Shown one piece after another: positions 7,064 through 31,260 of a stretch of 32,000 nt of DNA. How positions within the stretch are numbered: the first letter of the stretch is position 1; every line of letters starts with the position of its first letter. Location: positions 2,760,001 through 2,792,000 of the forward strand of contig OY759724.1 of the NCBI GenBank assembly GCA_963662715.1, given 5' to 3'. A program made the translations under genes and the position numbers. Below the pieces are notes generated by a model that saw nothing but the letters and a program-made list of their open reading frames with translations, searched no databases and was not told where the DNA came from. Source of the stretch: Candidatus Omnitrophota bacterium (GTDB taxonomy: Bacteria > Omnitrophota > Gorgyraeia > Zapsychrales > JANLHA01).

Positions 7064-7115
7064 CTGCCGGAAGACAGGCTCGGCCGTCCGTCCGGCGGGA
7101 TAAGGAGGTGTTCTG

Positions 7116-7880
7116 ATGAAGCTGATCAGCTGGAATGTCAACGGCATCCGGGCTATCATGAAAAAAGGGTTTAACGAGTGGATGAAAGAGGCGTCCCCGG
7201 ATGTTTTATGCCTGCAGGAAACCAAGGCGCATCCCGAACAGCTCTCACAGGCTGTTTTATCTCCTGCCGGATATCATTCGTTCTGGTCATCGGCGGAAAG
7301 AAAGGGCTACAGCGGGGTTGCCGTTTACACCCGCCAACAACCTCTTGCTGTTGAAGAGGGGCTGGGGATTAAAGAATTTGACCAGGAAGGACGTGTTTTA
7401 ATATTAACTTATCCTGATTTTATCTTATTTAACCTTTATGTCCCTAACGGAGGCAACGGGAACAAAAGGGTCCCTTTTAAAATGGATTTCAACGAAATCC
7501 TGCAGAACAAACTTGAGGATTTACGGAGAAAAGGTAAAAGTCTTGTGATCTGCGGAGACATTAATACCGCCCATACGGAAATCGATCTGGCCCGTCCCAA
7601 GGCCAACGAGAAAAATACCGGGTTTTTGCCGGAAGAACGGGCCTGGATCACTCAGTTCCTGTCCCTGGGCTATGTCGATACATTCCGCCATTTCTGCCCG
7701 GAGCCGGAACATTATACATGGTGGGATTATAAAACCAAAGCCAGGGACAGGAATGTCGGATGGAGGATTGATTATTTTTTTATAACGGTTGATATGACGT
7801 CAAAATTAAAAGACGCTTTTATCCTGAAAGATGTCCTTGGCTCAGACCATTGTCCGATCGGTATTATCCTGGATGTTTGA
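7116..7880 (+). CDS. xthA: exodeoxyribonuclease III
   Basis: 254 aa. It starts MKLISWNVNGIRA and has the QETK and GSDHCP motifs. AAGGAGG lies 6 nt upstream of the ATG. Confidence 0.92.
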   Translation: MKLISWNVNGIRAIMKKGFNEWMKEASPDVLCLQETKAHPEQLSQAVLSPAGYHSFWSSAERKGYSGVAVYTRQQPLAVEEGLGIKEFDQEGRVLILTYPDFILFNLYVPNGGNGNKRVPFKMDFNEILQNKLEDLRRKGKSLVICGDINTAHTEIDLARPKANEKNTGFLPEERAWITQFLSLGYVDTFRHFCPEPEHYTWWDYKTKARDRNVGWRIDYFFITVDMTSKLKDAFILKDVLGSDHCPIGIILDV

Positions 7881-8625: not shown

Positions 8626-8724
8626 ATGAAAGACATCACCCCGTTATTAAAGAAAGCCTGCATATTCGGATTTATTGCCATTTTTTTGATCGCTCTTGCC
8701 TGGGTCCTGATCGCTGGGCGATAA
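8626..8724 (+). CDS. possible 32-aa single-helix membrane micro-protein
   Basis: My own translation gives MKDITPLLKKACIFGFIAIFLIALAWVLIAGR plus a stop. GAGGA (8615-8619) lies 6 nt upstream. It is too short for the ORF track and there is no homology evidence. Confidence 0.3.
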   Translation: MKDITPLLKKACIFGFIAIFLIALAWVLIAGR

Positions 8725-8797
8725 AACCCTGAATATGATATTTTCAAAATCAAAGCCCCATCCTGTCAGAATTTGACTCTACGGATTGTTTTAAAAA

Positions 8798-10006
8798 ATG
8801 ATACCTGTTCTCCAAGCTGAAAGCCTGATCCTCAATCAGGCCGTTCTTTTTTCTGCTGAGCCTTGTCCGTTGGAAAAGGCAGGGGGCCGGATATTGCGTG
8901 AAGATATTTTTGCCGACCGCGATTCTCCGGCCGAGAGCTGTTCAGCCATGGACGGGGTTGCTATCCCTATGTCTTCCTGGAAAAAAGGACAGCGGGAATT
9001 CCGGATCCTCGGCACTCAGCGCGCCGGGGTGCCCCGGGTTTCTCTTCCCGATGCCTCCTGCTGTTACGAAGTCATGACCGGAGCTTTAATCCCCCGGGGC
9101 TACGATTGCGTTGTCCCGGTTGAAGATATTGTTATCAGGGGGGGACGGGCCGTTGTCCCGGGGAAGCTATCTCTGAAAAAGCATCAGTACATCAGGAGTA
9201 AAGGCAAGAATTTCCATCAGCAGGACCTTTTGATCCCGCAGGGCACTGTTTTGGCTCCGCCTCAGGTTGCGCTCGCGGCTTCAGTCGGTAAGACCACTGT
9301 CTTAACGGCTGAACCCCCGGCCATTGCCTTTATCGGCACAGGGGATGAAGTCGTGTCCTGTGACCGGCCGGTTTTAGCCCATCAGGTCCGGTCGGCCAAT
9401 GTCCGGGCGGTGGGAGCTGCTCTCAGCCAACACGGTTTTACCAGAAACACATCTTTTCATCTTCCGGATAATTATGCTGTTATCCGGAGCCGGGTGAAAA
9501 AGATTCTGGCGGACCACGATGTCGTTATCTTCAGCGGCGGGGTGTCTATGGGGAAATATGATTACATCCCGAAAGTTTTACAGGAACTTGGAGTGAAAAC
9601 GGTCTTTCATAAAGTCTCTCAGCGGCCGGGCAAACCTTTATGGTTCGGCCTGACCGGGAAATCACAGCCGGTCTTCGGCCTGCCGGGAAACCCGGTTTCG
9701 ACTTTGATCTGTACATACAGATACGTCCTGCCTTTTTTATTGAGGTGCGCCGGGGCCGCTCATACTCAGGAAGATCTGACGCTGCTGGAAGATTCTTGTG
9801 AGAATGAATCGGAATTAACTTTCTTTTTCCCGGTTGATAAAAGTTCTGATCCAAAAATTCCTTTATATAAACGCATCATCCCTTATCGCGGTTCGGACGA
9901 TATCCTTTCTTTGACCCGGAGCGCGGGATTTGTCGAGATCCCGGCCAGGACAGCCATTGCCGCCGGGAAAGACCCGGTCCGTTTCTTCCCGTGGGCCTTA
10001 ATATAA
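8798..10006 (+). CDS. moeA: MoeA-family molybdopterin molybdenumtransferase
   Basis: 402 aa. It carries MoeA signatures: SAMDGVA near the N-terminus, FSGGVSMGKYDY, and GLPGNPVS. Confidence 0.8.
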   Translation: MIPVLQAESLILNQAVLFSAEPCPLEKAGGRILREDIFADRDSPAESCSAMDGVAIPMSSWKKGQREFRILGTQRAGVPRVSLPDASCCYEVMTGALIPRGYDCVVPVEDIVIRGGRAVVPGKLSLKKHQYIRSKGKNFHQQDLLIPQGTVLAPPQVALAASVGKTTVLTAEPPAIAFIGTGDEVVSCDRPVLAHQVRSANVRAVGAALSQHGFTRNTSFHLPDNYAVIRSRVKKILADHDVVIFSGGVSMGKYDYIPKVLQELGVKTVFHKVSQRPGKPLWFGLTGKSQPVFGLPGNPVSTLICTYRYVLPFLLRCAGAAHTQEDLTLLEDSCENESELTFFFPVDKSSDPKIPLYKRIIPYRGSDDILSLTRSAGFVEIPARTAIAAGKDPVRFFPWALI

Positions 10007-10016
10007 TTCTGACGCC

Positions 10017-10466
10017 ATGAATATGACCTTAATCATGAACGGATGTGTTGTCAGTCTGGGATGCCTTTCGGTTTTACTGCCGTTTTGGGGCTGTCTGCTG
10101 TTTAATCCCAGGCATACGGCGGATTTTTACCGCCGTTATTTATTCCTGTATAATATTCTGCTCGGCCTGACCCTGATCTGCAGCTTTTTTTCCGGCATGG
10201 ATGTTTATGCTAAAATGCTCGTTGTGTTTTGGAAAGTTTTTGCGGTGGTCATAAGCCGCATGAACTGGCATAAAAAGAAAATCGGCAGACCGGTATTTTT
10301 TCTTTTGTTTTTCTGCGGAGTTTTTTGTTATATGCTGATTTCTGCCGGTCTTCTGAAAGGGACGGGACTGGCCCGCGGATGGGTCTTTGCGGCGGGTCTG
10401 GGGTTGAGTGCTCTCATTCACCTGGGGCAAGCAAAGCGAGGGAATATATCCGTGGTCAGGGAATGA
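10017..10466 (+). CDS. hypothetical integral membrane protein (about 4 TM helices)
   Basis: 149-aa hydrophobic ORF starting 10 nt after moeA on the same strand. I recognise no family. Confidence 0.45.
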   Translation: MNMTLIMNGCVVSLGCLSVLLPFWGCLLFNPRHTADFYRRYLFLYNILLGLTLICSFFSGMDVYAKMLVVFWKVFAVVISRMNWHKKKIGRPVFFLLFFCGVFCYMLISAGLLKGTGLARGWVFAAGLGLSALIHLGQAKRGNISVVRE

Positions 10467-10539
10467 CCGGTTTGCGGCAGATTCTACGTAACCCTTTTTT
10501 AGCAAAAGAATTAAAGGATGAACGGATAAAAATTTTTTT

Positions 10540-10565
10540 TGTAACTTTTTTTGCCGGGACGCGTT
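10540..10565 (+). promoter_or_regulatory. ECF-type (autoregulatory) promoter candidate
   Basis: TGTAAC (10540-10545), 16 nt, then CGTT (10562-10565). This resembles the AAC-N16-CGT core of many ECF sigma promoters. It lies about 30 nt upstream of the sigma gene ATG at 10595. Confidence 0.35.
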
Positions 10566-16680: not shown

Positions 16681-17025
16681 AAAATATCTTTTTCCATCTT
16701 TCCCCGGGAAGCAAGCAGATTTTTGCTGCCCATTTACCCCACATTATTTTTGTTTTTCACATTAAACTTAATTTAAAAATTTTTAAGCCCGGACTTTTTG
16801 TCTTGTTGCGTAAATATTTTATTTATTAGTGGTTGGGCGATTCTGAAAAATATTTTTGTATCCAAGTTTAAGAAAAGTCAGTTTTTGGTCGAGTCTGGCA
16901 ATTGTGCGGATACAGACATTAGATTACAATGATATCAATTGACTGATGCTTGTTAAAATTTTTTGTTAAGAAAAACAGCTAAGGGGCTGGCTATATATTT
17001 TAAATATTAATCTGGAGGAGTGAGT

Positions 17026-17694
17026 ATGCTGAAAATGAATTGTAGAAATATTGGGTCTTTTAATCGATATGTTATTATTTCTTTTACCTTTATTCTAAAT
17101 TTATTATGTTTCCAGCTCCCGGTTCATTCTGCCGACGTTGAAAATCCCTGGCATCTCAGCATGTACGGCGGGGGTGTTTTTCCTACTGACGATACCATTG
17201 AAGAAACATTTACAATCGGCGGCCGTTTTACCTATGAACTGCTGGAAAATCTGGAAGTCGGGGTTGATCTTTCCTGGCAGCAGTATGAAGACAAGTATCT
17301 GGGGCTTACATTAGGTGATGTGAACCATATCCCGGTCTATGCCGTTGTGAAATACAATATTGTCTTTAATCCGGATAATACCAGGTTTGTTCCCTATTTG
17401 TTGGGCGGGATCGGCTTTTCATACTGGAATTATCATGAAGAATTGTCAACCATATCCGCAGATGATGATATCAGTTTTACCGGGAAAATCGGCGGGGGCG
17501 TTGACATGGCTCTGAACGAGCAGACATCTCTGTTCCTGGAGGGCGGTTTTTCGTGGGCAAAGTACGACCTGTCAGGTACAGTCCAGATGATAATCCCTGT
17601 TTCATCAACACCGATTGTTAGAACTGTTAGTGTCTCCAGTTCCACTGATCTCAATACGGCTTTTGCAAAAATCGGGATCAGGATCAATTTTTAA
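17026..17694 (+). CDS. outer-membrane beta-barrel protein (OmpA/OmpW-like small porin-family barrel)
   Basis: ORF-track position 17020 is a GTG. GGAGG (17014-17018) lies 7 nt before ATG 17026. The product has a signal peptide (...QLPVHSADV), alternating hydrophobic beta-strand patterning and the terminal sequence IGIRINF, with the C-terminal Phe typical of OMPs. Confidence 0.75.
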   Translation: MLKMNCRNIGSFNRYVIISFTFILNLLCFQLPVHSADVENPWHLSMYGGGVFPTDDTIEETFTIGGRFTYELLENLEVGVDLSWQQYEDKYLGLTLGDVNHIPVYAVVKYNIVFNPDNTRFVPYLLGGIGFSYWNYHEELSTISADDDISFTGKIGGGVDMALNEQTSLFLEGGFSWAKYDLSGTVQMIIPVSSTPIVRTVSVSSSTDLNTAFAKIGIRINF

Positions 17695-17758
17695 GGATTT
17701 TAAGGGACAGTCCACAACCTCTAATATTAAATTATTTTCAAATGGAAAGGAGCGAGCT

Positions 17759-18898
17759 ATGTCTCGTTTTAGGTTGATTTTGAGCTTGCTGATTTTTTGC
17801 GCGTTTGTCCTTGTTTTCCCTAACTCAGCGCAGAGTTTTTATCCAGGGAGAATAGTTTTCATACATGAGGCGGATTATCATAATTCAGAAAACGAAACCG
17901 AAATCTATACTATGAATATTGACGGTTCAGATGTTCGGGTGCTGACAGATAATGATTTTGCCGATATGGACCCTCTCTGGTCACCTGATGGTCAATATAT
18001 TTCTTTCTATTCTAACCGTACCGGAACAGGTGATGTGTTTGTTATGGATCAGAACGGCGATAATGTGATAAACGTCAGTAATAACCAGGATCATTCCAAC
18101 TACCGTCAAACCTGGTCCCCAGACAGCCAACAGCTTACTTACGTGGAAAACATAGACCCGACTAATATAAATATATGGACCAGCACTTTAGATGGCAGTC
18201 CGTCTCAAAAGATTAACCAGGAACAGGGAAGTTTTTCTTTCCCAAGATGGTCAGGTGCCGGAGACCGCATCGCTTACAGTAAGTATGACAGTGATACCAA
18301 AATTTATATCGCTGACAGTGATGGTTCAAATACTGTTATCTTGTCGGGCGTCAGCACGATGTTTAATTGGTCTCCTTCAGGAGACAGGCTTCTTTATGTG
18401 CAGGATGGCAATTTGTGGACCGTTGATCCTTATGGTTTAGATGCAGAAATGCTTTATGATCCTTCGAATGGGAACGTTTTCTTCTCAGCAAATCCTGTTT
18501 GGTCTTCCGACGGTGAATCCATCGCTTTTGTTGTATCGGAAAGCACGGAAGAGGGGTTCACGCGTGCCCTTTATACCATAGGGGCCGATGGGCAAGGGCT
18601 TAATATGCTTTTTGATATACCACAGTATTCTACCGTAGGCTATCTGAATTGGACGCCTGACGGCCGATATTTAGTTTTTTGTATGTTTAGTGATTCTTAT
18701 CAGATTTACAGCCTGGATTTGTTGACATCCGAATTAACCCAACTAACATTTGACGGAGACAACAGTAAACCTCATCTGCAGATGCTGCTCTCTCAGGATG
18801 ACCCGCCATCTTCGACTGTCCCGGAACCGGCAACTGTTTTGTTGTTTGGCTTTGGAATCTTGGGCGGTTTATGGCGAAAATTAAAGGGACCGAATTAA
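17759..18898 (+). CDS. PD40/TolB-like beta-propeller protein with C-terminal PEP-CTERM sorting signal
   Basis: The frame is that of ORF 17615-18898. GGAAAGGAG precedes ATG 17759, which gives MSRFRLILSLLIFCAFVLVFPNSAQS, a signal peptide. PD40-type repeats recur (WSPDGQYISFYSNRTG, WSPDSQQLTY, WSPSGDRLLY, WSSDGESIAF, WTPDGRYLVF). The C-terminus is VPEPATVLLFGFGILGGLWRKLK, i.e. PEP, a TM helix and a basic tail. Confidence 0.85.
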   Translation: MSRFRLILSLLIFCAFVLVFPNSAQSFYPGRIVFIHEADYHNSENETEIYTMNIDGSDVRVLTDNDFADMDPLWSPDGQYISFYSNRTGTGDVFVMDQNGDNVINVSNNQDHSNYRQTWSPDSQQLTYVENIDPTNINIWTSTLDGSPSQKINQEQGSFSFPRWSGAGDRIAYSKYDSDTKIYIADSDGSNTVILSGVSTMFNWSPSGDRLLYVQDGNLWTVDPYGLDAEMLYDPSNGNVFFSANPVWSSDGESIAFVVSESTEEGFTRALYTIGADGQGLNMLFDIPQYSTVGYLNWTPDGRYLVFCMFSDSYQIYSLDLLTSELTQLTFDGDNSKPHLQMLLSQDDPPSSTVPEPATVLLFGFGILGGLWRKLKGPN

Positions 18899-19588: not shown

Positions 19589-22500
19589 ATGAAACAAATA
19601 TTCCAATCCGTTAGACGAACAATTGAAAAGCATGCCGTCTTTAGTCCTGGATTCTTAACTTTGCGAAAACCGCTTTTTGCCATAATGCTCATCCTGTTAA
19701 GCAGCGTGGCTTGTGTCGGAAATGTATATGGCCAAACTCCCACGGTCAGCACCGATAAGGCAACGTATACTCCGGGTGAATCGATAGTGGTGAGTTTCAC
19801 CAACGCGGCCGGGGACGCGTCCGACTGGATCTCCCTGGCCAATGCCGGGTCGGCGAACAATCAGTATGTTGATCTACTATATACGGACGGCACTTTGAAC
19901 GGGACCGCAGGTATCGTTAACGGCAGCGTCACGTTCCCCAATGGCCTGCCGTCCGGGAATTACGAAGCCCGGCTGTTTTTCTATGATTCCTTCAACCTGG
20001 AGGCGAGCGTGTCGTTCACGGTCGAGCCCGCGGGTGCGATCACGGTCAGCACCGATAAGGCAACGTATACTCCGGGTGAATCGATAGTGGTGAGTTTCAC
20101 CAACGCGGCCGGGGACGCGTCCGACTGGATTTCCCTAGCCAATGCCGGGTCGGCGAACAATCAGTATGTTGATCTACTATATACGGACGGCACTTTGAAC
20201 GGGACCGCAGGTATCGTTAACGGTAGCGTTACGTTCCCCAATGGCCTGCCGTCCGGGAATTACGAAGCCCGACTGTTTTTCTATGATTCCTTCAACCTGG
20301 AGGCGAGCGTGTCGTTCACGGTCGAGCCCGCGGGTGCGATCACGGTCAGCACCGATAAGGCAACGTATACTCCGGGTGAATCGATAGTGGTGAGTTTCAC
20401 CAACGCGGCCGGGGACGCGTCCGACTGGATTTCCCTAGCCAATGCCGGGTCGGCGAACAATCAGTATGTTGATCTACTATATACGGACGGCACTTTGAAC
20501 GGGACCGCAGGTATCGTTAACGGCAGCGTCACGTTCCCCAACGGCCTGCCGTCCGGGAGTTACGAAGCCCGGCTGTTTTTCTATGATTCCTTCAACCTGG
20601 AGGCGAGCGTGTCGTTCACGGTCGAGCCTGCGGGTGCGATCACGGTCAGCACCGATAAGGCAACGTATACTCCGGGTGAATCGATAGTGGTGAGTTTCAC
20701 CAACGCGGCCGGGGACGCGTCCGACTGGATTTCCCTAGCCAATGCCGGGTCGGCGAACAATCAGTATGTTGATCTACTATATACGGACGGCACTTTGAAC
20801 GGGACCGCAGGTATCGTTAACGGCAGCGTCACGTTCCCCAATGGCCTGCCGTCCGGAGATTACGAAGCCCGACTGTTTTTCTATGACTCTTATAATCTGG
20901 AAGCCAGTGCTTCTTTTGATGTGGCAACAGCCCCGGATGCTATAACTGATTTAAGCGCAGTATCAGGAGAAGGAGAGGTAACGCTTAGTTGGACAGAGCC
21001 GCCAGATAACAATTCTGCGATTACGAGTTATGAGGTTGAGTATGGGACGGTGGCGAGTGGATTATTTGATAATACATATACGGATGACGCAACGCCTGGC
21101 GCGACAATTAGTGGTCTTACGAATGGAGTTGCCTATCAGTTCAGGGTATTGGCTATTAATGGAGAGGGGACGAGTCCCGAGTCCAACGTAGTGACAGCAA
21201 CACCAGCAGCTATGACAGGTGTCACCTGGACGGATTTAGTGGGGGTGAGTGCGAACGGGAATACCATCACAAAGACAGCCGGGGGGACGGGATGGAATGC
21301 CGGGGCGGCCTCGGCAGAGACGTTTAACGGCGACGGCGGAGTGGATTTCAGTGTATCGCAGGCTAACGGAGCTGTGATGTGCGGGTTATCAGAGGAGAAT
21401 ACGGATGAAAACTATACAACGATTGATTATGCTTTGTATGCGGATCTGTCGGGGAATGTTCGGGTGTATGAGAACGGAGTGTCCCGCGGGACGTTTGGGG
21501 CTTATGAAATCGGGGACCGGTTACGAGTGGCAAGGACCGGGAGCACGGTGACATATGAGCATAACGGGACAGTGATCTATACGAGCACGGTGTCAAGCAG
21601 CGGACCGCTTGTGGCGGATGCCTCGATCTACACGGCAGATGCTGAAATAGTCGATGCCCAGCTTTTTGGGGTCACAGTGGGTGTGCCCGATACGATAACG
21701 GATCTGGAAGTGAGGAATAACATTGTTGATGTTGAATTGGCGTGGACAGCACCGGGGAATAACGGAGCGGCGATAACAGAATATGAGATCCAGTATGGTA
21801 CGGTGGCAAGCGGATTATTTGAGAATACGTATGTTGATGATGCCAGTGCCGGGGCAACGCTGAGCGGATTAACGCTAGGAGTGGGATATCAGTTCAGGGT
21901 GATAGCGAAGAACAGTTATGGGTCATCAGGGACGTCGAATGTTGCAACCGGGACACCGGTAACGGGGATAGATGTAAGCTGGACGGATTTGGTGGGGGTG
22001 AGTGCGAACGGGAATACCATCACAAAGACGGCCGGGGGTACGGGATGGAATGCCGGAGCGGCCTCGGCAGAGACGTTTAACGGCGACGGCGGGGTGGATT
22101 TCAGTGTATCGCAGGCTAACGGAGCTGTGATGTGCGGGTTATCAGAGGAGAATACGGATGAAAACTATACAACGATTGATTATGCTTTGTATGCGGATCT
22201 GTCGGGGAATGTTCGGGTGTATGAGAACGGAGTGTCCCGCGGGACGTTTGGGACGTATGAAATCGGGGACCGGTTACGAGTGGCAAGGACCGGGAGCACG
22301 GTGACATATGAGCATAACGGGACAGTGATCTATACGAGCACGGTGTCAAGCAGCGGACCGCTTGTGGCGGATGCCTCGATCTACACGGCAGATGCTGAAA
22401 TAGTCGATGCCCAGCTTTTTGGGGTCACAGTGGGTGTGCCCGATACGATAACGGATCTGGAAGTGAGGAATAACATTGTTGATGTTGAATTGGCGTGGAC

Positions 22501-25500
22501 AGCACCGGGGAATAACGGAGCGGCGATAACAGAATATGAGATCCAGTATGGTACGGTGGCAAGCGGATTATTTGAGAATACGTATGTTGATGATGCCAGT
22601 GCCGGGGCAACGCTGAGCGGATTAACGCTAGGAGTGGGATATCAGTTCAGGGTGATAGCGAAGAACAGTTATGGGTCATCAGGGACGTCGAATGTTGCAA
22701 CCGGGACACCGGTAACGGGGATAGATGTAAGCTGGACGGATTTGGTGGGGGTGAGTGCGAACGGGAATACCATCACAAAGACGGCCGGGGGTACGGGATG
22801 GAATGCCGGAGCGGCCTCGGCAGAGACGTTTAACGGCGACGGCGGGGTGGATTTCAGTGTATCGCAGGCTAACGGAGCTGTGATGTGCGGGTTATCAGAG
22901 GAGAATACGGATGAAAACTATACAACGATTGATTATGCTTTGTATGCGGATCTGTCGGGGAATGTTCGGGTGTATGAGAACGGAGTGTCCCTCGGGACGT
23001 TTGGGACGTATGAAATCGGGGACCGGTTACGAGTGGCAAGGACCGGGAGCACGGTGACATACGAGCATAACGGGACAGTGATCTATACGAGCACGGTGTC
23101 AAGCAGCGGACCGCTTGTGGCGGATGCCTCGATCTACACGGCAGATGCTGAAATAGTCGATGCCCAGCTTTTTGGGGTCACAGTGGGTGTGCCCGATACG
23201 ATAACGGATCTGGAAGTGAGGAATAACATTGTTGATGTTGAATTGGCGTGGACAGCACCGGGGAATAACGGAGCGGCGATAACAGAATATGAGATCCAGT
23301 ATGGTACGGTGGCAAGCGGATTATTTGACAATACGTATGTTGATGATGCCAGTGCCGGGGCAACGCTGAGCGGATTAACGGTAGGGGTGGAATATCAGTT
23401 CAGGGTGATAGCGAAGAACAGTTATGGCTCATCAGGGACGTCGAATGTTGCAACCGGGACACCGGTAACGGGGATAGATGTAATCTGGACGGATTTAGTG
23501 GGGGTGAGTGCGAACGGGAATACCATCACAAAGACAGCCGGGGGTACGGGATGGAATGCCGGGGCGGCCTCGGCAGAGACGTTTAACGGCGACGGCGGGG
23601 TGGATTTCAGTGTATCGCAGGCTAACGGAGCTGTGATGTGCGGGTTATCAGAGGAGAATACGGATGAAAACTATACAACGATTGATTATGCTTTGTATGC
23701 CGATCTGTCGGGGAATGTGCGGGTGTATGAGAACGGAGTGTCCCGAGGGACGTTTGGGACGTATGAAATCGGGGACCGGTTACGAGTGGCAAGGACCGGG
23801 AGCACGGTGACATACGAACATAACGGGACAGTGATCTATACGAGCACAGTGTCAAGCAGCGGACCGCTTGTGGCGGATGCTTCGATTTATACAGCAGATG
23901 CTGAAATAGTCGACGCTATGATTATGGGTGTTAGTCAGGCTCCCGAACCTATTACGGATTTAACGGCCATGGCTGAGAACGGGCAAATTTCCTTATTTTG
24001 GACAGCTCCGGAAGATAACGGGTCCCCAATAACAGAATACGAAGTCCGTTACGGGACCGTTAGCGGCGGTGTATTTGATCACACGTACACGGATGATGAT
24101 ACTCCGGGGACTGTAATCACGGGACTCACTAATGACGTAGAGTATATGTTTAGGGTCTTTGCCATAAACAGCGCTGGGTCTTCAGCTGATTCTAATTTCG
24201 TTACAATTTCGCCGATAATAACGTTTCCGGTCAATTGGACGGATTTGGTCGGAGTGAACGCTAACGGAAGCACGATCACAAAAACAGATACATCAGCCTG
24301 GGGAAATGGCGGAGCGGCCTCAACAACAACTTTTGAGGGAGATGGAGGTGTGGAATTCCGGATTTCCCAAACTCCTGTCAATCTTATATGCGGGTTGTCT
24401 GATGAAAATACGGATGCCGATTATACGAGTATTGACTATGCCATCCGTTTAAATGATACGGGAGCGATTGAAGTTTTTGAAAACGGGTTATATGTAGACT
24501 CGTTCGGGAGTTATGAGGCTGCGGATGTTTTTAGAGTCAGGAGAACAGGAAACACAATAACTTATCAAAAGAACGGGACGGTTTTTTACACAAGCACTGT
24601 TTCTAGCTTGGGGCTTTTACTGGCGGATGCCGCCATATATGCGTCTGGAGACGAAATAGCCGATGCCAATATGATAGGTGTAACCCCGGGAGTTCCCGGG
24701 TCGATATATGATCTGTCCGCTGTGGCCGGGGATGAAGAAGTTATGCTTTACTGGACAGCCCCGGTGAACAACGGAGCGGTTATCACGGAATATGAAATTC
24801 AGTACGGAACTGTAGCCAGCGGTCTATTTGACAATACTTATACGGACGACGCCGTTACCGGGGCTACGATAACCGGCCTGACAAATGACACCGAATATCA
24901 ATTTCGTGTTGTTGCTGTCAACAGTTACGGCACGGCCGATCCATGGGGTTTTGTAACATCCACTCCGTATGAGAGCAGTGTGGGCATCCCTGTCACCTGG
25001 CAGAATATGATCGGATGTGAAGCGACGGGTAATGATTTGGAAAAAGTGACTTGGGCAGGATTTGCCACAGCCTCTTCCGTAACGACCTTTTCCGGGGATG
25101 TGAAGGTGGCATTCACGGCTTCCAGTTTTCCCTACGGGATCCAGTTTGGTTTATCCAGTGATCCGGATACTTCTTATACGAACATACATCATAATATCCA
25201 TATCAATAATCCTTCCGGCGTAGATACAATTAACATCCGCGAAAACGGCGTAATTGTTTACTCCGAGACGACATCTGTATCTGCCGGCGATGTTTTTGCC
25301 ATAGAGAGAAGCGGTACGACTGTAACTTATCTCAGAAATGAAACCGTTTTTTATACGAGTACGAGCCCGTCTGCCGGGACTCAATTTATTGACGTTTTTA
25401 TGGATACTTTTGGCGGCCGCCTTGAAGATGCCATGATTTACGGCGTCACGCCTGGCGTGCCTGATCCTGTTACGGATTTAACGGCTGATGCCGATCCGGG

Positions 25501-28500
25501 CGAAGTCGTGCTCGACTGGACAGCCCCGGCGAATAACGGCACAGCGATCATCCAGTACGAAGTGCAGTACGGCACAGTGGCCAGCGGGTTGTTTGATCAT
25601 ACTTATATTGATGATGACAGCCCCGGAACGACGATCAGTGCCCTGACGAACGGCACAGCCTATCAATTCAGGGTCGTGGCCACCAATAGTTCCGGTTCTT
25701 CGGAGGTCTCAAATGCCGTTGTTTCCACTCCTTATGACGGTATGCCTGTCACCTGGCAGAATCTGGTCAACTGCACGGCCACGGGCAGCGATTTGGAGAA
25801 TACCTCGTCTGAGCAAGGCGGCGCTTCATCCGTGACAACTTTTTCCGGGGATGCGAAAGCGGAATATACCGTCTCTGCCAGCCCGGTGGGGATTCACTTC
25901 GGTCTGTCTGACAGTGATCCTGATGTGGATTGGACGAATATTGATTATGATATTTATGTCGGTACGGGACTTACGGTGACTGTTTATGAAAACGGCACGT
26001 CCGTACATGCGGGCCCTGTTGTGAACACCGGCGACGTTCTATCCATTGACAAGACAGGCTCAACCATAACCTATCTGTTGAACGGGACGGTCTTTTATAC
26101 AAGCGCAGAAACGGCAAACGGGACTTTATTAATAGACACTTTCTTGGAGAATAACGGGAATTTGATCGAAGATGCCCGCATGATCGGGCTTGTCACCGGA
26201 GTTCCCGGCACAATAACAGACCTTACCGCTTACAGCGGCCTTGGGGAAGTCACGCTTTACTGGACAGCCCCGGCGAACAACGGTTCTGCGATTTTTGAAT
26301 ATGAAATCCAGTACGGCACGGTCGCCGGCGGATTATTTGATAACACCTATACGGACGACGCAGAAACAGGAGCCATTGTTTCCGGCCTGACAGACGCAAC
26401 GGATTATCAATTCAGAGTGATCGCCAAAAACGGCTATGGAAGTTCGGATGTGTCCAACACGGCCGCAGCCATGCCGAATACAAGTGTAGACATCACCTGG
26501 ACAGATATTGTCGGCGTTACGGTTAACGGTAATACCATTATAAAAAATGCTGCGACTATGGCCTGGGACAGCGGTGCCGCCTCTTTTGAGAAGATCAGCG
26601 CCGATGGGGCCCTTGAGTTTACCGCAACCCAGACAAATACACGGCGTTTATGCGGCTTTTCCAAGGCGAACACCGATGCCGGCGGCAGCAGTATTGATTA
26701 CGGGATTTATCTTTACGATAACGGCTACGCTTATGTCTTTGAGAACGGCGCCAATAAAGCGTCTCTTGGACCGTACGAAAGTGGCGACCGATTTGCCGTG
26801 CGGCGCACCGGCTATCAGATGATTTATAAGAAAAACGGAAACGTTTATTATGCAAACAGCAACACAGCTAACAGCGGAGAACTGCTGGCCGATGCGTCTA
26901 TTTATACCCCTGAAGGGGAGATTACTGAGGCAAAGTTGCTGATCCTCAGCCCCGGTGTCCCTGATGCGGTCGAAGATCTCGTTGCTGTCGGGGAAGACGG
27001 TCAGGTCGCTTTAAGCTGGAACGCTCCGGATGGAAACGGTTCGGCCATTACGGAATATGAAGTGCGGTACGGGACAGTGGCCAGCGGTTTGTTTGACAGT
27101 ACATATTTAGATGATGCCGATCCCGGTGCGGTCATATCAGGATTAACTAATGGTGTAGAATATCAGTTCCAGGTTGTCGCCACCAACGGTGTCGGTACGG
27201 GTGAAGTTTCCAATACCGCGACAGCTATCCCTGTGCAGACCCCGGAAATTGACGTGGTCTGGACAGATTTGGTCGGGGTGTCGGTTGACGGCAACAGCAT
27301 TACCAAGACGGCATCCACAGGCTGGGGGAACGGCGGGGCGGCATCCGAGCAGATCATAACAGGAGACGGCGGGGTGAAATTCACCGCGGCCCAGACAGAT
27401 AAAATCGTGCTCTGCGGCTTATCAGAGACCAATGCCGATGCCAGTATTTTTTCCATTGAATACGCTATGTATCTGCACAGCAGCGGCAATGTTTATGTTT
27501 ACGAGAGCGGTTCTTATATCGACGGCTACGGGTCTTACAGCGTCGGTGATACTTTCTCGGTGGAACGCAGCGGGACCACGGTCGTGTACAAACATAACGG
27601 TACGATTATTTACACCAGCACGGTCCCGGCCGCCGGGTCACTGCTGGTGGATTCGACGATATACACCCAGGGCGGCACGATCAGTGACGCGAAAATCACA
27701 GGGATCGCGGTCGGCCCGCCTGACGCCGTTGATGATTTAATAGCTTCGGCTAAGGATGCTGGAGTAATATTAGACTGGACAGCCCCTTCAGACAACGGTT
27801 ATCCGATCAGCGGATATGAAGTGCAGTACGGCACGGTGGCCGGCGGTTTGTTTGACAATACCTATGTCGATGACGACATCCCGGGCACGGCGATTTCCGG
27901 ATTGACCAACGGAGAGGAATATCAATTCCGGGTGGTGGCCGTGAATTCCCAGGGGACCAGTGATGTTTCAAATGTCGTAATGGCGACCCCTGAGCCCCTG
28001 GTTGTGGTTGACGTCGTCTGGACAGATGCCATTCACGTGGATGTCAACGGTAATACCATTACCAACACCTGGTGGCAGGATGGCTGGGAGAGCGGCGCCG
28101 CGTCCATGACAATATTTGACGGAGACGGGGCCGTTGATTTTACCGTTGCGCAGACCAATGCCCGTCTGGCCTGCGGCTTGTCTGATGCCAATACCGGCAC
28201 CGGGTATACTTCGATCGACTATGCCTTTTATCTTGAGACCAACGGTGACCTGTATATTTATGAAAATGGGGTGAGTCAGGGCGTCTTCGGTACTTATGAT
28301 GTCGGAGACCGGCTTGTCATAGACAGGACATTTTCCACGGTCACTTACTGGAATGACACGACGCTTCTTTACACCAGCACCACCCCCAGCACCGGGCCCC
28401 TTATGGCGGACAGTGCCATTTACACCTCCGGGGGCGTGATTGATGATGCCCGGTTAAGCGGGATATCCTGGAGTCTGCCGGAATCCGTAACAGACCTGGA

Positions 28501-30361
28501 TGCGACTCCTTATTCCGAGGAAGTTGATTTATCCTGGAGCAATACCGAACTTGTGACCGGTTATAAGATCCTGTACGGCACAGCCAGCGGGGTTTATGAT
28601 ACGGAAATCAATGCCGGGGCCGTAACCGATTATACGGTCACCGGTTTAAGTAACGGTACGAAATATTATTTTATCGTCCGGGGCTACAACCATGTCGGAG
28701 ACGGCGCAGACTCCAATGAAATCGACACCATACCTTACCAGAAGACCTATATCAATTCTGATATCACGGAAGATACAACTTGGGACCTGCAGGGCAGCCC
28801 GTATATTATTAACACAAGCATTGCCGTTGATGCCGGCGTGACTTTGACGATCGAACCCGGCGTTGAAGTGAGGTTTGGCGGTTTTTACAGCCTCACCATT
28901 AACGGCACGTTAAACGCGCAGGGCACAGCCGGGCAGAGGGTCCTTTTCACATCGGATGAATCGCCCAAAGAAGCTCAGGATTGGATAGGTATTTATATTT
29001 ACGGTAACGCAAATATATCCTTTGCCCAATTTGAATATTCCCTTCACGGATTGTATATCGATAATGTTTCTCCCTCAATTTATGATAACGTTTTTAAATA
29101 CAACGGCTCAGCGCTTTATCTTGTTAACGGCTGTTCGTCTGATATATCCGGGAACACGATAAGCAATAATCATACGGGTGTTTTTGTGTCCCCTTCATTA
29201 ACGACGCCGCCCAACCCAACGATCAATAATAATGACATTTTTGACAACGTATATGATTTTAAAACAGAAGCTCCGGGGGGATTGGATTATTCTTCCATCA
29301 CGATCAATGCGGAGAATAACTGGTGGGGGACAACAGATCAGGCGGCCATTGAAAATAAAATTATTCATAACCCTGATGATGCTTTGCTCCCGGTCGTGGA
29401 TTACGAGCCTTACGAATCGCAGGCCAGCGGGCCGGGGATATCCAACCCCAATGTCTCAGCTCTGCTGTTTACCCCTGTCTCCGGGGAAACCACGAGTATC
29501 AATTATACCCTTGACCAGGACGCGGATGTTACAATTAAAATATATTTATATGAGACTAAGGAACTCGTCTACACTTTGCTGGATTCTGCGGCCAGAACCG
29601 CCGGCACTCATTCCGAGACCTGGGACGGCCGGAACAATTATAATGAAGTCCTGCCTTATGATGTTTATTATTACACCATCAGTGCTGTCGACAGTTCGGA
29701 TAATTATTCGGAATATGACCCTCAGTATGTTGAAGGGACTGTGGATTTCCTTAATTATTCGGTTGAGCCGGACACGTTTGACCCTTATCAGAACGAAGTT
29801 GTAACGGTCTCTTATGATCTGCTTTCCCCGTCTTGGGTTATTTTGACAGTGAACGCCCCCAGAGAAATCGGTGAAGATGCCTATGAAATTGATGAGCTGG
29901 TGACGTCAAGCCCACAGGACACGACGGGGAATCAGGAGATCTGGGATGGACGCGATGCCGGAGGATTCATTAGGGATGGTGATTTTTATATATTTGGTTG
30001 GGCGACTCTTTTGCCGGATAATGCCATTGCCCTGGAGCCTGATTTCGAAATCACATCTTTGACTACGGGGCCGTACTCTATCTTCCCGATTTACGGGGAT
30101 ATCACGCATATAACGTATGAAATCCCCGCAGATGCGGTGATTACTCTGGAAGTGCTGGATCCTGACGGCGTTTCGGTTCGCACGCTTATAAATGATGCAT
30201 TGACGGAAGCAGGTCATTATACCGGTCTCGTTTGGGACGGCAAAGATGATACCGGACGGGTTGTTTCTCCGGCCGGGAATTATATCGTGAAACTCACAGC
30301 AGTGAATGCCGCGGACGGGGAAACGAGTATCAAGTATGCCAATGTCACAATTTTTGATTAA
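19589..30361 (+). CDS. giant (3,590 aa) secreted multidomain repeat protein: 4x Ig-like, 11x FN3 / 10x unassigned domain, parallel beta-helix, FlgD-Ig-like domains
   Basis: A single uninterrupted 10,773-nt frame. The approximate domain map is:
- Signal peptide: RKPLFAIMLILLSSVACVGNVYG-QT.
- 19742-20930: four 100-aa domains.
- 20930-28741: FN3 domains (TDL...L.WT.P.NNG..I..YE..YGTV...Y.FRV.A.N..G) alternating with a ~155-aa domain.
- 28742-29420: beta-helix repeats (ISGNTISNNHTGVFV, INNNDIFDN, NNWWGT).
- 29420-30358: about three FlgD-Ig-like modules (TWDGRNNYNEVLPYDVYYYTISAVD; VWDGKDDTGRVVSPAGNYIVKLTAVN). Confidence 0.9.
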   Translation: MKQIFQSVRRTIEKHAVFSPGFLTLRKPLFAIMLILLSSVACVGNVYGQTPTVSTDKATYTPGESIVVSFTNAAGDASDWISLANAGSANNQYVDLLYTDGTLNGTAGIVNGSVTFPNGLPSGNYEARLFFYDSFNLEASVSFTVEPAGAITVSTDKATYTPGESIVVSFTNAAGDASDWISLANAGSANNQYVDLLYTDGTLNGTAGIVNGSVTFPNGLPSGNYEARLFFYDSFNLEASVSFTVEPAGAITVSTDKATYTPGESIVVSFTNAAGDASDWISLANAGSANNQYVDLLYTDGTLNGTAGIVNGSVTFPNGLPSGSYEARLFFYDSFNLEASVSFTVEPAGAITVSTDKATYTPGESIVVSFTNAAGDASDWISLANAGSANNQYVDLLYTDGTLNGTAGIVNGSVTFPNGLPSGDYEARLFFYDSYNLEASASFDVATAPDAITDLSAVSGEGEVTLSWTEPPDNNSAITSYEVEYGTVASGLFDNTYTDDATPGATISGLTNGVAYQFRVLAINGEGTSPESNVVTATPAAMTGVTWTDLVGVSANGNTITKTAGGTGWNAGAASAETFNGDGGVDFSVSQANGAVMCGLSEENTDENYTTIDYALYADLSGNVRVYENGVSRGTFGAYEIGDRLRVARTGSTVTYEHNGTVIYTSTVSSSGPLVADASIYTADAEIVDAQLFGVTVGVPDTITDLEVRNNIVDVELAWTAPGNNGAAITEYEIQYGTVASGLFENTYVDDASAGATLSGLTLGVGYQFRVIAKNSYGSSGTSNVATGTPVTGIDVSWTDLVGVSANGNTITKTAGGTGWNAGAASAETFNGDGGVDFSVSQANGAVMCGLSEENTDENYTTIDYALYADLSGNVRVYENGVSRGTFGTYEIGDRLRVARTGSTVTYEHNGTVIYTSTVSSSGPLVADASIYTADAEIVDAQLFGVTVGVPDTITDLEVRNNIVDVELAWTAPGNNGAAITEYEIQYGTVASGLFENTYVDDASAGATLSGLTLGVGYQFRVIAKNSYGSSGTSNVATGTPVTGIDVSWTDLVGVSANGNTITKTAGGTGWNAGAASAETFNGDGGVDFSVSQANGAVMCGLSEENTDENYTTIDYALYADLSGNVRVYENGVSLGTFGTYEIGDRLRVARTGSTVTYEHNGTVIYTSTVSSSGPLVADASIYTADAEIVDAQLFGVTVGVPDTITDLEVRNNIVDVELAWTAPGNNGAAITEYEIQYGTVASGLFDNTYVDDASAGATLSGLTVGVEYQFRVIAKNSYGSSGTSNVATGTPVTGIDVIWTDLVGVSANGNTITKTAGGTGWNAGAASAETFNGDGGVDFSVSQANGAVMCGLSEENTDENYTTIDYALYADLSGNVRVYENGVSRGTFGTYEIGDRLRVARTGSTVTYEHNGTVIYTSTVSSSGPLVADASIYTADAEIVDAMIMGVSQAPEPITDLTAMAENGQISLFWTAPEDNGSPITEYEVRYGTVSGGVFDHTYTDDDTPGTVITGLTNDVEYMFRVFAINSAGSSADSNFVTISPIITFPVNWTDLVGVNANGSTITKTDTSAWGNGGAASTTTFEGDGGVEFRISQTPVNLICGLSDENTDADYTSIDYAIRLNDTGAIEVFENGLYVDSFGSYEAADVFRVRRTGNTITYQKNGTVFYTSTVSSLGLLLADAAIYASGDEIADANMIGVTPGVPGSIYDLSAVAGDEEVMLYWTAPVNNGAVITEYEIQYGTVASGLFDNTYTDDAVTGATITGLTNDTEYQFRVVAVNSYGTADPWGFVTSTPYESSVGIPVTWQNMIGCEATGNDLEKVTWAGFATASSVTTFSGDVKVAFTASSFPYGIQFGLSSDPDTSYTNIHHNIHINNPSGVDTINIRENGVIVYSETTSVSAGDVFAIERSGTTVTYLRNETVFYTSTSPSAGTQFIDVFMDTFGGRLEDAMIYGVTPGVPDPVTDLTADADPGEVVLDWTAPANNGTAIIQYEVQYGTVASGLFDHTYIDDDSPGTTISALTNGTAYQFRVVATNSSGSSEVSNAVVSTPYDGMPVTWQNLVNCTATGSDLENTSSEQGGASSVTTFSGDAKAEYTVSASPVGIHFGLSDSDPDVDWTNIDYDIYVGTGLTVTVYENGTSVHAGPVVNTGDVLSIDKTGSTITYLLNGTVFYTSAETANGTLLIDTFLENNGNLIEDARMIGLVTGVPGTITDLTAYSGLGEVTLYWTAPANNGSAIFEYEIQYGTVAGGLFDNTYTDDAETGAIVSGLTDATDYQFRVIAKNGYGSSDVSNTAAAMPNTSVDITWTDIVGVTVNGNTIIKNAATMAWDSGAASFEKISADGALEFTATQTNTRRLCGFSKANTDAGGSSIDYGIYLYDNGYAYVFENGANKASLGPYESGDRFAVRRTGYQMIYKKNGNVYYANSNTANSGELLADASIYTPEGEITEAKLLILSPGVPDAVEDLVAVGEDGQVALSWNAPDGNGSAITEYEVRYGTVASGLFDSTYLDDADPGAVISGLTNGVEYQFQVVATNGVGTGEVSNTATAIPVQTPEIDVVWTDLVGVSVDGNSITKTASTGWGNGGAASEQIITGDGGVKFTAAQTDKIVLCGLSETNADASIFSIEYAMYLHSSGNVYVYESGSYIDGYGSYSVGDTFSVERSGTTVVYKHNGTIIYTSTVPAAGSLLVDSTIYTQGGTISDAKITGIAVGPPDAVDDLIASAKDAGVILDWTAPSDNGYPISGYEVQYGTVAGGLFDNTYVDDDIPGTAISGLTNGEEYQFRVVAVNSQGTSDVSNVVMATPEPLVVVDVVWTDAIHVDVNGNTITNTWWQDGWESGAASMTIFDGDGAVDFTVAQTNARLACGLSDANTGTGYTSIDYAFYLETNGDLYIYENGVSQGVFGTYDVGDRLVIDRTFSTVTYWNDTTLLYTSTTPSTGPLMADSAIYTSGGVIDDARLSGISWSLPESVTDLDATPYSEEVDLSWSNTELVTGYKILYGTASGVYDTEINAGAVTDYTVTGLSNGTKYYFIVRGYNHVGDGADSNEIDTIPYQKTYINSDITEDTTWDLQGSPYIINTSIAVDAGVTLTIEPGVEVRFGGFYSLTINGTLNAQGTAGQRVLFTSDESPKEAQDWIGIYIYGNANISFAQFEYSLHGLYIDNVSPSIYDNVFKYNGSALYLVNGCSSDISGNTISNNHTGVFVSPSLTTPPNPTINNNDIFDNVYDFKTEAPGGLDYSSITINAENNWWGTTDQAAIENKIIHNPDDALLPVVDYEPYESQASGPGISNPNVSALLFTPVSGETTSINYTLDQDADVTIKIYLYETKELVYTLLDSAARTAGTHSETWDGRNNYNEVLPYDVYYYTISAVDSSDNYSEYDPQYVEGTVDFLNYSVEPDTFDPYQNEVVTVSYDLLSPSWVILTVNAPREIGEDAYEIDELVTSSPQDTTGNQEIWDGRDAGGFIRDGDFYIFGWATLLPDNAIALEPDFEITSLTTGPYSIFPIYGDITHITYEIPADAVITLEVLDPDGVSVRTLINDALTEAGHYTGLVWDGKDDTGRVVSPAGNYIVKLTAVNAADGETSIKYANVTIFD
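19741..20930 (+). repeat. in-frame tandem repeat, 300-bp unit x 4 (near-identical)
   Basis: CACGGTCAGCACCGATAAGG recurs at exactly 19741, 20041, 20341 and 20641. The units differ by only a handful of mostly synonymous substitutions. The fourth unit diverges in its last ~50 nt. Confidence 0.95.
21228..23915 (+). repeat. in-frame tandem repeat, 753-bp unit x ~3.6 (near-identical), continuing as diverged ~750-760-bp modules to ~28741
   Basis: GTGGGGGTGAGTGCGAACGGG starts at 21239, 21992, 22745 and 23498, a spacing of exactly 753. The encoded units differ at only a few residues (A/T, R/L, E/D, L/V, G/E, S/I). Confidence 0.95.
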
Positions 30362-30375
30362 AGAAAGATGAAAAT

Positions 30376-31260
30376 ATGCTGCAAAGGACTTTAGTTTTTC
30401 TGCTCATAACTTTTTTCTTGAGCCATAGTCCGCTTTGGGCTGAGGTTAAAGAACTGATTGCTTATTCAAGTCTCACGGATGGCTACTGGCAGATATGGAC
30501 CATGGCCCCGGACGGAAGTCATAAACAGCAGGTGACGCGGTCTTTGTCTGATAAAAGGGACCCGGCATGGATGAACAACGGTCAGGCTTTGGTGTGCCGA
30601 ACGAATAATGGCGAACTTTGGACTGTTGACCTTGCGACAAAAGAGGAAAAACAGGTCCTCACAAGATACACCATGATCCGTAATCCGCATTACTGCGATG
30701 CCAGCCAGGAGATCGTTTTTGTCCGTTTTGACCCGCGGTCCCAGGGGGCGGGCTTTATATGGAAAACAGATTTGAAAGACAGCTACCCGGAGGTCCTAAC
30801 CCGGGAAAGCATTCTGAAATATCAGCCGGTTTTTTCCTGGCAGTGCGACAAGATTGCCTTTGTCAAAGCTGATCAGGAATTAAAGAATCATCATGTATGG
30901 CTCATGGACGCTGACGGCAAGAATCAGGAACAGTTGACAAAAGAAACAGGGCTGTTTACGCTCCCGGCGTTTTCTCCGGATCAGAAAAGCCTTGTTTTGA
31001 CCTCAAACTGTCAGGATGATAATTATGAAATTTATGTTCTGGATCTGGCAAGCCGGGAAACGAAGCGGATCACCAGCGATCCGGGGCTGGATACCCATGC
31101 CCGTTTTTCCCCGGACGGGAAAAATATTGTCTTTGTTTCCAACCGCAGCGGGAGTCAGCAGATCTGGACCATGGACCGGGAAGGCCGTAATCTGCAACAG
31201 CTCACCCGCGGCCCGGAGGAATGTGTCACTCCGGATTGGGGAAGGGCCGGGGAGGATTAG
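30376..31260 (+). CDS. TolB-like periplasmic PD40 beta-propeller protein
   Basis: 294 aa. It has a signal peptide (FLLITFFLSHSPLWAEV) and PD40 motifs (FSPDQKSLVLTSN, ARFSPDGKNIVFVSNRSGSQQIWTMDREGRNLQQLT). It starts 14 nt after the giant gene stop. Confidence 0.85.
   Translation: MLQRTLVFLLITFFLSHSPLWAEVKELIAYSSLTDGYWQIWTMAPDGSHKQQVTRSLSDKRDPAWMNNGQALVCRTNNGELWTVDLATKEEKQVLTRYTMIRNPHYCDASQEIVFVRFDPRSQGAGFIWKTDLKDSYPEVLTRESILKYQPVFSWQCDKIAFVKADQELKNHHVWLMDADGKNQEQLTKETGLFTLPAFSPDQKSLVLTSNCQDDNYEIYVLDLASRETKRITSDPGLDTHARFSPDGKNIVFVSNRSGSQQIWTMDREGRNLQQLTRGPEECVTPDWGRAGED

Follow-up and report, generated by a model that had tools for sequence, protein, structure and literature searches.

The DNA examined here is a 32,000-nt stretch (the window) of contig OY759724.1 from a Candidatus Omnitrophota bacterium (assembly GCA_963662715.1, positions 2,760,001 to 2,792,000), a piece of bacterial chromosome that also carries genes for the Rnf complex, MoeA, a VWA protein and radical-SAM enzymes. 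Its RnfC shares 75%, 68% and 67% identity with proteins assigned to Candidatus Omnitrophota. Its open reading frame (ORF) at 19589-30361 on the forward strand encodes a single product of 3,590 amino acids (aa), for which an exact-sequence look-up matched no record, and which holds a complete array of 11 fibronectin type III (FN3) domains alternating with exactly ten modules of ~155 aa (153-157 aa), termed X here. Structural and profile comparisons placed X among the concanavalin-A-like domains, with SPRY domains as its closest named kin, and suggest that it may serve as a ligand-binding, lectin-like module displayed multivalently on FN3 spacers, a reading to which we assign a probability of roughly 60%.

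Three approaches delineated the array. The Pfam fn3 model (PF00041) matched 11 stretches (E 6e-120, 392 bits against a gathering cut-off of 25), and motif mapping placed the FN3 starts at aa 449, 700, 951, 1202, 1452, 1703, 1958, 2206, 2458, 2711 and 2964. A hidden Markov model (HMM) built exclusively from copies of other organisms recovered exactly ten full-length X modules (E 7e-32 to 8e-62) in a six-frame translation of the window, with no further copy elsewhere in it. Together, they confirmed a preliminary description of the sequence, which had reported ten ~155-aa modules between 11 FN3 domains, and the extent found here, 20933 to ~28765, lies within ~25 nt of the 20930-28741 given there. 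The X modules follow one another at a start-to-start distance of 744-765 nt, and all features of the protein are collected in the table.

Table. Features of the 3,590-aa protein, with window coordinates.
Feature	Coordinates	Strand	Basis or remark
N-terminal signal-peptide-like segment	19589..19732	+	aa 1-48: basic stretch, hydrophobic core, ...VYG/QTP; read from the translation by eye
300-nt (100-aa) repeat, 3.8 near-identical copies	19741..20886	+	Repeat analysis; domain scans
FN3 domain 1	20933..21217	+	Pfam, motif mapping
X module 1	21218..21685	+	SPRY-like concanavalin-A-fold domain; copy used for the structure model
FN3 domain 2	21686..21970	+	Pfam, motif mapping
X module 2	21971..22438	+	98% identity to module 1
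FN3 domain 3	22439..22723	+	100% identity to FN3 domain 2
X module 3	22724..23191	+	Motif mapping, external HMM
FN3 domain 4	23192..23476	+	Motif mapping
X module 4	23477..23941	+	Motif mapping, external HMM
FN3 domain 5	23942..24226	+	Motif mapping
X module 5	24227..24694	+	58% identity to module 1
FN3 domain 6	24695..24988	+	Motif mapping, three-domain model
X module 6	24989..25459	+	Divergent subtype (WQN start, FGLS); predicted fold unchanged
FN3 domain 7	25460..25744	+	Motif mapping, three-domain model
X module 7	25745..26203	+	Divergent subtype
FN3 domain 8	26204..26488	+	Motif mapping
X module 8	26489..26959	+	Motif mapping, external HMM, PHROG match
FN3 domain 9	26960..27250	+	Motif mapping
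X module 9	27251..27718	+	Motif mapping, external HMM, PHROG match
FN3 domain 10	27719..28009	+	Motif mapping
X module 10	28010..28477	+	Motif mapping, external HMM, PHROG match
FN3 domain 11	28478..28765	+	Divergent: 32-40% identity to the remaining FN3 domains
NosD-like, right-handed beta-helix-like stretch	29039..29332	+	TIGR04247, E 1.4e-4, weak, far under the family cut-off
FlgD Ig-like domain	29483..29692	+	PF13860 (Pfam)
C-terminal FlgD Ig-like domain	30137..30325	+	Pfam, NCBIfam, PDB search

Comparison of the copies revealed an uneven history of the array. X modules 1-4 share 94-99% mutual identity, and the remaining X pairs 27-58%. The FN3+X units 1-4 (21181-23941) follow a 753-nt period, with X-region DNA 92-93% identical and proteins 94-100% identical, and on these identities one such unit has recently been duplicated in tandem; the assembly might give a wrong count of the four near-identical units. 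At 20-24 kb, in step with the four-unit expansion, the local GC skew is strong (0.18-0.31). At the other extreme, modules 6 and 7, which had been set apart as a subtype by their WQN start and FGLS motif, are indeed the most divergent copies (49% identity to each other, 27-44% to the others), yet the external HMM matched both end to end (E 8e-35 and 2e-41), and a confident AlphaFold2 model of FN3(6)-X6-FN3(7) (predicted local distance difference test [pLDDT] 89.1, predicted template-modelling score [pTM] 0.67) retained a 14-strand X, so that predicted fold and family are unchanged. The pTM suggests that the predicted inter-domain geometry is only moderately defined, and Foldseek with this model returned FN3 chains only (template-modelling score [TM] <= 0.29), the arrangement itself being absent from solved structures. 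With recent duplicates set aside in the FN3 figure, FN3 domains 1-10 share 48-64% identity as against the 27-58% of X, and the FN3 domains beside modules 6 and 7 are not unusual themselves. X has thus diverged more than FN3, in keeping with a functional unit, X, that diversifies while FN3 is conserved as its spacer.

The preliminary description had proposed an all-beta, jelly-roll or lectin-like fold for X, and structure prediction bore this out. AlphaFold2 modelled X module 1, from a 65-sequence alignment, as an all-beta domain of 14 strands (pLDDT 96.6, pTM 0.91). A Foldseek search of the PDB gave 158 matches with E <= 1e-3, of which the best 50 were inspected (TM query-normalised); all 50 were concanavalin-A-like folds, with TM values of 0.46-0.74 for the predicted query structure. 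The matches included the archaeal legume-lectin domain 7elv (E 6.5e-6, TM 0.67), one chain (E) of 8a9y, a levan utilisation machinery, carbohydrate-binding module (CBM) family 66, glycoside hydrolase (GH) family 16 glucanases and the L-type lectins Emp46/47, and the best superpositions among the matches listed were SPRY/B30.2 domains (TM 0.65-0.74; RanBP10 0.74, TRIM25 0.70). Sequence identity between X and the solved concanavalin-A-like structures amounts to 10-18%; judged from the model, the fold class of X is clear, yet solved cellular proteins include no close relative. At fold level, as predicted, X belongs to the concanavalin A-like lectin/glucanase superfamily, so that the module is covered by a described group at superfamily rank only, and by no named family. 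CBM66, the L-type lectins and Laminin_G_3 have the same fold class; with CBM66, however, TM reached only 0.46-0.51 and identity 12-16%, no sequence or HMM match linked X to CBM66, legume or L-type lectins or Laminin_G_3, and none of the known sugar- or metal-binding residues of lectins and CBMs was identified in X. Membership of Laminin_G_3 (PF13385) was considered and rejected, since its sole match (residues 1-56 of the relative P0061) covers the final part of another domain, located ahead of X.

Since GH16 glucanases and a polysaccharide lyase family 7 (PL7) alginate lyase were among the Foldseek matches, X might be a small concanavalin-A-like glucanase or lyase catalytic domain of the GH16 or PL7 kind, repeated for local enzyme concentration, and the near-invariance of E85 (95%) along with the good conservation of the Asp residues D100 and D134 would agree with this. 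The GH16-type E-x-D-x-x-E motif is absent, however, on which ground GH16-like catalysis was rejected, and E85 is the sole conserved acidic residue on its strand. Moreover, X has 155 aa against 185-216 residues in the aligned enzyme chains (TM 0.53-0.60), the enzymes found in relatives are separate GH5 or GH16 domains, and ten to 25 tandem catalytic copies would lack precedent. We consider a catalytic X extremely improbable.

The curated libraries hold no model for X: neither Pfam-A nor NCBIfam gave a match, the family consensus and the most divergent members included. Pfam-A returned nothing for single X modules, or for the family consensus and most divergent members, at E <= 10, nothing for X in 65 relatives at E <= 0.01, and nothing for X in P0124, a relative of seven tandem copies; NCBIfam and Pfam together left the intervals between the FN3 domains of the window protein without a match, and no relevant CBM HMM matched X in Pfam at E <= 10. 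The Pfam SPRY HMM (PF00622) likewise failed to match at any threshold, even E <= 10, in the window copies and 65 members or in the consensus and the copies that diverge most, and X therefore lies outside the Pfam SPRY family as now defined. In a PDB sequence search, the only match besides weak pyocin L lectins was 26gp_Q, described below; the pyocin L matches (E 0.06) were judged a chance likeness of beta-hairpin "NG" turns. Across the family, the conserved positions are W4, K19, W26, G29-A30-x-S32, G40, G56-L57, E85-x-G87, Y96 and G99-D100, followed in the C-terminal part by Y113, N116-G117, S123, L131 and D134; T122 and S136 also count among the conserved polar residues, and variable loops lie at about residues 20-25, 47-52, 59-68, 76-80, 124-129 and 138-140. 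The consensus read earlier from the ten window copies was approximately right, apart from the Cys of its CGLS motif: this column (55) holds I, F or A across the wider family, and conservation of the Cys is local to the window protein.

A profile-profile comparison provided a further link to SPRY. We aligned an X profile of 552 non-redundant copies, by hhalign, with a SPRY profile made of three real SPRY sequences taken out of PDB alignments, and obtained a probability of 77.6% (P 1.9e-5) over 90 columns, with the G-D, Y-x-x-N-G and L-x-x-D motifs paired; the reversed SPRY profile gave P 0.031, 15 column shuffles P >= 0.18 and the window FN3 P 0.049. On the sequence side, then, the X-SPRY link appears specific and weak. 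Beyond the concanavalin-A-like beta-sandwich common to both, X and the SPRY/B30.2 domains (PF00622; RanBP9/10, TRIM PRYSPRY, Ash2L, RyR SPRY2) appear to agree in the aligned core motifs G-D, aromatic-x-x-N-G and L-x-x-D/P. They differ in that X is a highly repeated extracellular domain of bacteria or phages, whereas the classical SPRY domain is intracellular, eukaryotic and usually single, and X, unlike SPRY, has its own conserved N-terminal motif, W..(V)..GN.L.K...W(N/D)AGA.S. We hold the assignment of fold and family with high confidence. It follows that X is not unassignable, only unnamed in curated libraries: the preliminary description was correct in finding no Pfam-A or NCBIfam family, and its view of the module as unassigned gives way to a remote SPRY-like relationship and to homology with 26gp_Q and the PHROG families 19691 and 26502.

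The closest solved homologue came from phages. A profile of the window modules searched against the PDB matched residues 106-237 of 26gp_Q ("Structural protein", 620 aa; E 4.6e-9), with an hhalign probability of 97.6%. This protein, whose structures (26gp, 26la and 44nx) were deposited recently, has the same sequence as ORF005, which is a structural protein of the virion in KPP25 and phiR18, two Pseudomonas phages of the genus Kochitakasuvirus. Of the seven distinct window modules, six also matched PHROGs 19691 and 26502 ("virion structural protein"; E 8.7e-14 to 1.6e-5), the seventh, module 6, giving no match to either; since the matches span ~140 of ~620 profile positions, the alignments indicate a common domain, not full-length membership. 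Structural searches of BFVD returned an uncultured marine phage protein auto-annotated "ash2" (SPRY-containing protein; TM 0.87) and a structural protein of Cellulophaga phage phi13:1 (TM 0.82). Among cultured phages, X was found only in the KPP25 group and in Cellulophaga phiST, phi13:1 and phi19:2, and a scan of viral contigs with the window pattern returned no relatives, the phage homologues being too distant for this method. ORF005 of KPP25 and phiR18 (phrog_26502) and the protein of phiST and phi13:1 (phrog_19691) are true homologues over nearly the whole of X. They differ from the window protein in carrying a single X inside ~620 aa, without an FN3 array and at an identity of only ~25-36%, and are annotated merely as 'structural protein' (KPP25 and phiST loci). 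Pfam returned nothing relevant for KPP25 ORF005 and its neighbours, no published description of 26gp, 26la or 44nx was found, and ORF005 was not identified in a preprint on a pilus tail fibre. In the phage locus L001, where the X-bearing 620-aa protein is encoded at 8686-10548, a neighbouring 398-aa protein (6531-7727; 26fb chain K) is named 'head closure Hc3' in the KPP25 record and 'Structural protein' in the PDB. Concanavalin-fold lectin domains, SPRY included, have been tied to the tail fibres of phages and to further parts of the virion (PMC7824862), and the SPRY domain has been proposed to have arisen in phage tail proteins (PMC8195603).

X also proved widespread in bacteria. An exhaustive profile search retrieved 9,867 representative proteins with a cut-off of E <= 1e-3, and 3,144 when this was set to E <= 1e-30; the lower-scoring tail may be inflated by some flanking columns in the profile. 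A word-indexed search, in comparison, yielded 108 short, mostly unnamed fragments, all <= 273 aa; the two that were checked (P0006 and P0010) are pieces of frameshifted giant genes, and word-indexed counts therefore greatly understate the family. Genomes with X include Omnitrophota (the closest, at 61-62% identity), metagenome-assembled genomes (MAGs) labelled Planctomycetales, Leptospirillia and Binatia, a Pseudomonadales MAG, and many Bacteroidota, among them the cultured Fulvivirga. X is thus a real, large family, unnamed in the curated libraries tested.

The top profile matches carry 3-25 X copies per protein, and their spacing was analysed in the 150 best-scoring representative proteins (849 copies). 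Direct tandems, with a spacing of <= 20 aa, were seen in 65 proteins and a spacing of 85-102 aa in 62, with 13 proteins at 50-84 aa and ten above 102 aa. The preliminary description had regarded a strictly periodic array as unusual, which does not hold against these counts; as read from these sequences, the periodic spacer/X layout is common in the family. That all ~90-aa spacers are FN3 was likewise rejected, most being other modules. FN3 of the window type serves as the ~90-aa spacer in at least 12 of the 150 proteins (e.g. P0113, hhalign 99.9%, and P0118), and the spacer of P0109 (25 copies) and P0110 (19 copies) is another, Cys-containing ~90-aa module, while the remaining spacers look CHB_HEX_C-like, cadherin-like or TSP3-like (by eye only) and that of the fragment locus L003 is Big_12 (Pfam). 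The Cys-containing spacer (P0109, P0110, P0111, P0112, P0114, P0121, P0126 and P0130) has the pattern '(S/G)P.YQW.LNG...G.N..TY.NT.L...D.I.C.LTP...GC'. Spacers thus differ between proteins while X stays, which makes X the constant element and the spacers interchangeable.

These architectures bear on whether X has a specific ligand at all, since X and FN3 might together form a structural block that lends length, stiffness or bulk to a fibre or matrix protein. The range of copy number (3 to 25), the direct tandems without partner domains and the position of most conserved residues in the core or in turns are in keeping with such a block, as are the four near-identical window units, a recent duplication of the kind seen in length-variable fibre proteins. 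It is difficult to reconcile, however, with the faster divergence of X than of the neighbouring FN3 and with the constancy of X where spacers are exchanged among proteins, and X is found singly or in pairs in enzyme, toxin and virion proteins, which have no need of a length element. In addition, the N- and C-terminal strands of concanavalin-A-like domains usually lie adjacent, which makes them poor in-line rods. A merely structural X is, in our judgement, quite improbable.

Partner domains in relatives comprise Calx-beta, cadherin-like, FG-GAP, PKD, RCC1 propellers, CHB_HEX_C, Fn3_assoc, TSP3 and PEP-CTERM, a set typical of extracellular adhesins. In P0118 (2,457 aa), the closest relative of the window modules at 62% identity, a GH5 domain (E 1e-29) lies upstream of an FN3-X array, and GH5 was found in four of the top 150 proteins (P0118, P0179, P0232 and P0208) as well as at the fragment locus L002 (1-3060), where X and FN3 follow a GH5 cellulase; X is joined to Big_12 at L003, and P0239 has GH16 and DUF4082 alongside X. 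The order GH5-FN3-X is the classical enzyme-FN3-binding-module layout: enzymes with CBM or lectin modules combine a catalytic GH domain, FN3 linkers and binding modules, and the relatives with X are built by similar modular logic. A different context was found in Fulvivirga kasyanovii JCM 16186 (L025 2155-6345 (+), NZ_BAAAFL010000012.1), whose 1,396-aa protein with two X copies consists of a signal peptide, X-FN3-X, an FN3-like segment, Rhs/YD repeats and a C-terminal variable toxin-like region. By analogy of architecture, this puts X at the position that targeting domains occupy in polymorphic toxins.

The nature of the ligand can be approached from the same fusions. X could be a protein or peptide recognition module, as eukaryotic SPRY/B30.2 domains are, with pili, S-layers, outer-membrane proteins or subunits of surface assemblies as targets; SPRY domains gave both the top TM values (0.65-0.74) and the only specific profile-profile link, and the N-terminal parts of Rhs toxins often bind protein receptors. 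Against this, relatives fuse X to GH5, GH16 and the carbohydrate-associated CHB_HEX_C and DUF4082, the best Foldseek E values belong to lectin and CBM structures, and the X-bearing phage protein need not be the receptor-binding protein. We regard protein recognition as possible, if rather unlikely.

Outside the array, the giant protein begins with the signal-peptide-like segment and four almost identical 100-aa units (19741-20886; 98% identity at the 300-nt period), which are probably Ig-like; Pfam and NCBIfam gave weak matches to MG2 and choice-of-anchor-U, and no solved relative was found. The C-terminal ~530 aa (28766-30361) contain the weak NosD-like stretch and two to three FlgD Ig-like domains. 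PDB searches with the N-terminal repeats and with this C-terminal region returned weak FlgD Ig-like and spurious nanobody matches and nothing else, and a PEP-CTERM or type IX secretion system (T9SS) sorting signal is absent from the C-terminal region. Genes on either side of the giant gene (17020-18898; 30376-31260) encode a beta-barrel protein of the outer membrane and two beta-propeller proteins of the PD40 (TolB-like) type; of the two propellers, the upstream one carries a terminal PEP-CTERM motif that hints at an exosortase-dependent surface locus. The regions outside the FN3/X array do not provide a decisive functional clue.

We propose that X is a ligand-recognising unit, probably for a glycan or another cell-surface structure, and that the FN3 domains would act as inert spacers keeping the binding units apart. 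A secreted or surface giant protein with a putative signal peptide would thereby display ten X copies and could attach, by multivalent avidity, to a surface of repeating structure, for instance polysaccharide or a second cell's envelope, while the diverged copies would widen the ligand range and possibly render attachment multi-specific. X may do an equivalent job in the GH5 cellulase fusions, at the N-terminus of the Fulvivirga Rhs toxin and in the virion proteins of the KPP25-like and Cellulophaga phages. A multivalent adhesin or carbohydrate-binding array would agree, by analogy, with the signal-peptide-like N-terminus and with the adhesin-type partners and GH5, GH16 and Rhs fusions of relatives.

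Several points weigh against this proposal. The analysis shows how the repeats are arranged, the fold class, the size of the family, its homology with the phage proteins and its partner domains, whereas we infer that X binds a ligand, what kind of ligand this is and that avidity is at work. The fold matches carry 10-18% identity at moderate TM, and most residues conserved across the family (G56, L57, G87, G99-D100, Y113, N116-G117 and L131) coincide with SPRY structural motifs, so that they are not necessarily part of a binding site. Only a minority of relatives have a glycoside hydrolase partner, and the window protein is without a recognised catalytic domain in a Pfam scan. The virion role and position of the phage X protein are not established by annotation, Pfam or literature. 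Finally, characterised SPRY domains mostly bind proteins or peptides rather than glycans.

A bolder extension, which we offer as speculation and think unlikely, would make X the principal line of SPRY domains in prokaryotes and phages, a diversifying receptor-recognition module that phage adsorption proteins and Rhs-type contact toxins have in common with the giant surface proteins by which host-dependent or predatory Omnitrophota would seize other cells. FN3 arrays would then be multi-specific grappling devices in which each copy meets another epitope, and the family would bear witness that the SPRY/B30.2 domain of eukaryotic immune recognition arose in bacteria or phages.

Giant surface proteins of Omnitrophota and other bacteria have been described as tandem-repeat scaffolds with up to 36 Laminin_G_3 copies (bioRxiv 10.64898/2026.06.07.730766, 10.1101/2023.11.21.568195). 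The window protein has its phylum in common with the Omnitrophota ones and, like all of them, is a long secreted chain of many repeated beta-sandwich, adhesion-type domains. It differs in that its 3,590 aa are far under the 'giant' class of these surveys, in that their SecA-like and dockerin domains are absent from it (Pfam), and in that its repeat unit has no Pfam model and would count as unannotated there; X is not described in the surveys of Omnitrophota giant proteins that were consulted. The fold of X, its modular use and the type of its host protein are already familiar, a phage homologue has been solved and PHROG families exist; no new type of biological system comes to light with X. 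Its significance lies in the ~10,000 representative proteins, from Omnitrophota, Bacteroidota, Nitrospirota, Binatia and phages, in which X is without a Pfam or NCBIfam model, which leaves long stretches of giant "hypothetical" surface proteins as dark matter. Naming X and tying it to the solved phage structure and the SPRY/concanavalin-A-like fold would allow adhesins, Rhs toxins and the structural proteins of phages to be annotated better. For the biology of the family, X adds data on the proposed phage origin of SPRY domains, and for Omnitrophota it is a concrete candidate for the cell attachment proposed in this phylum.

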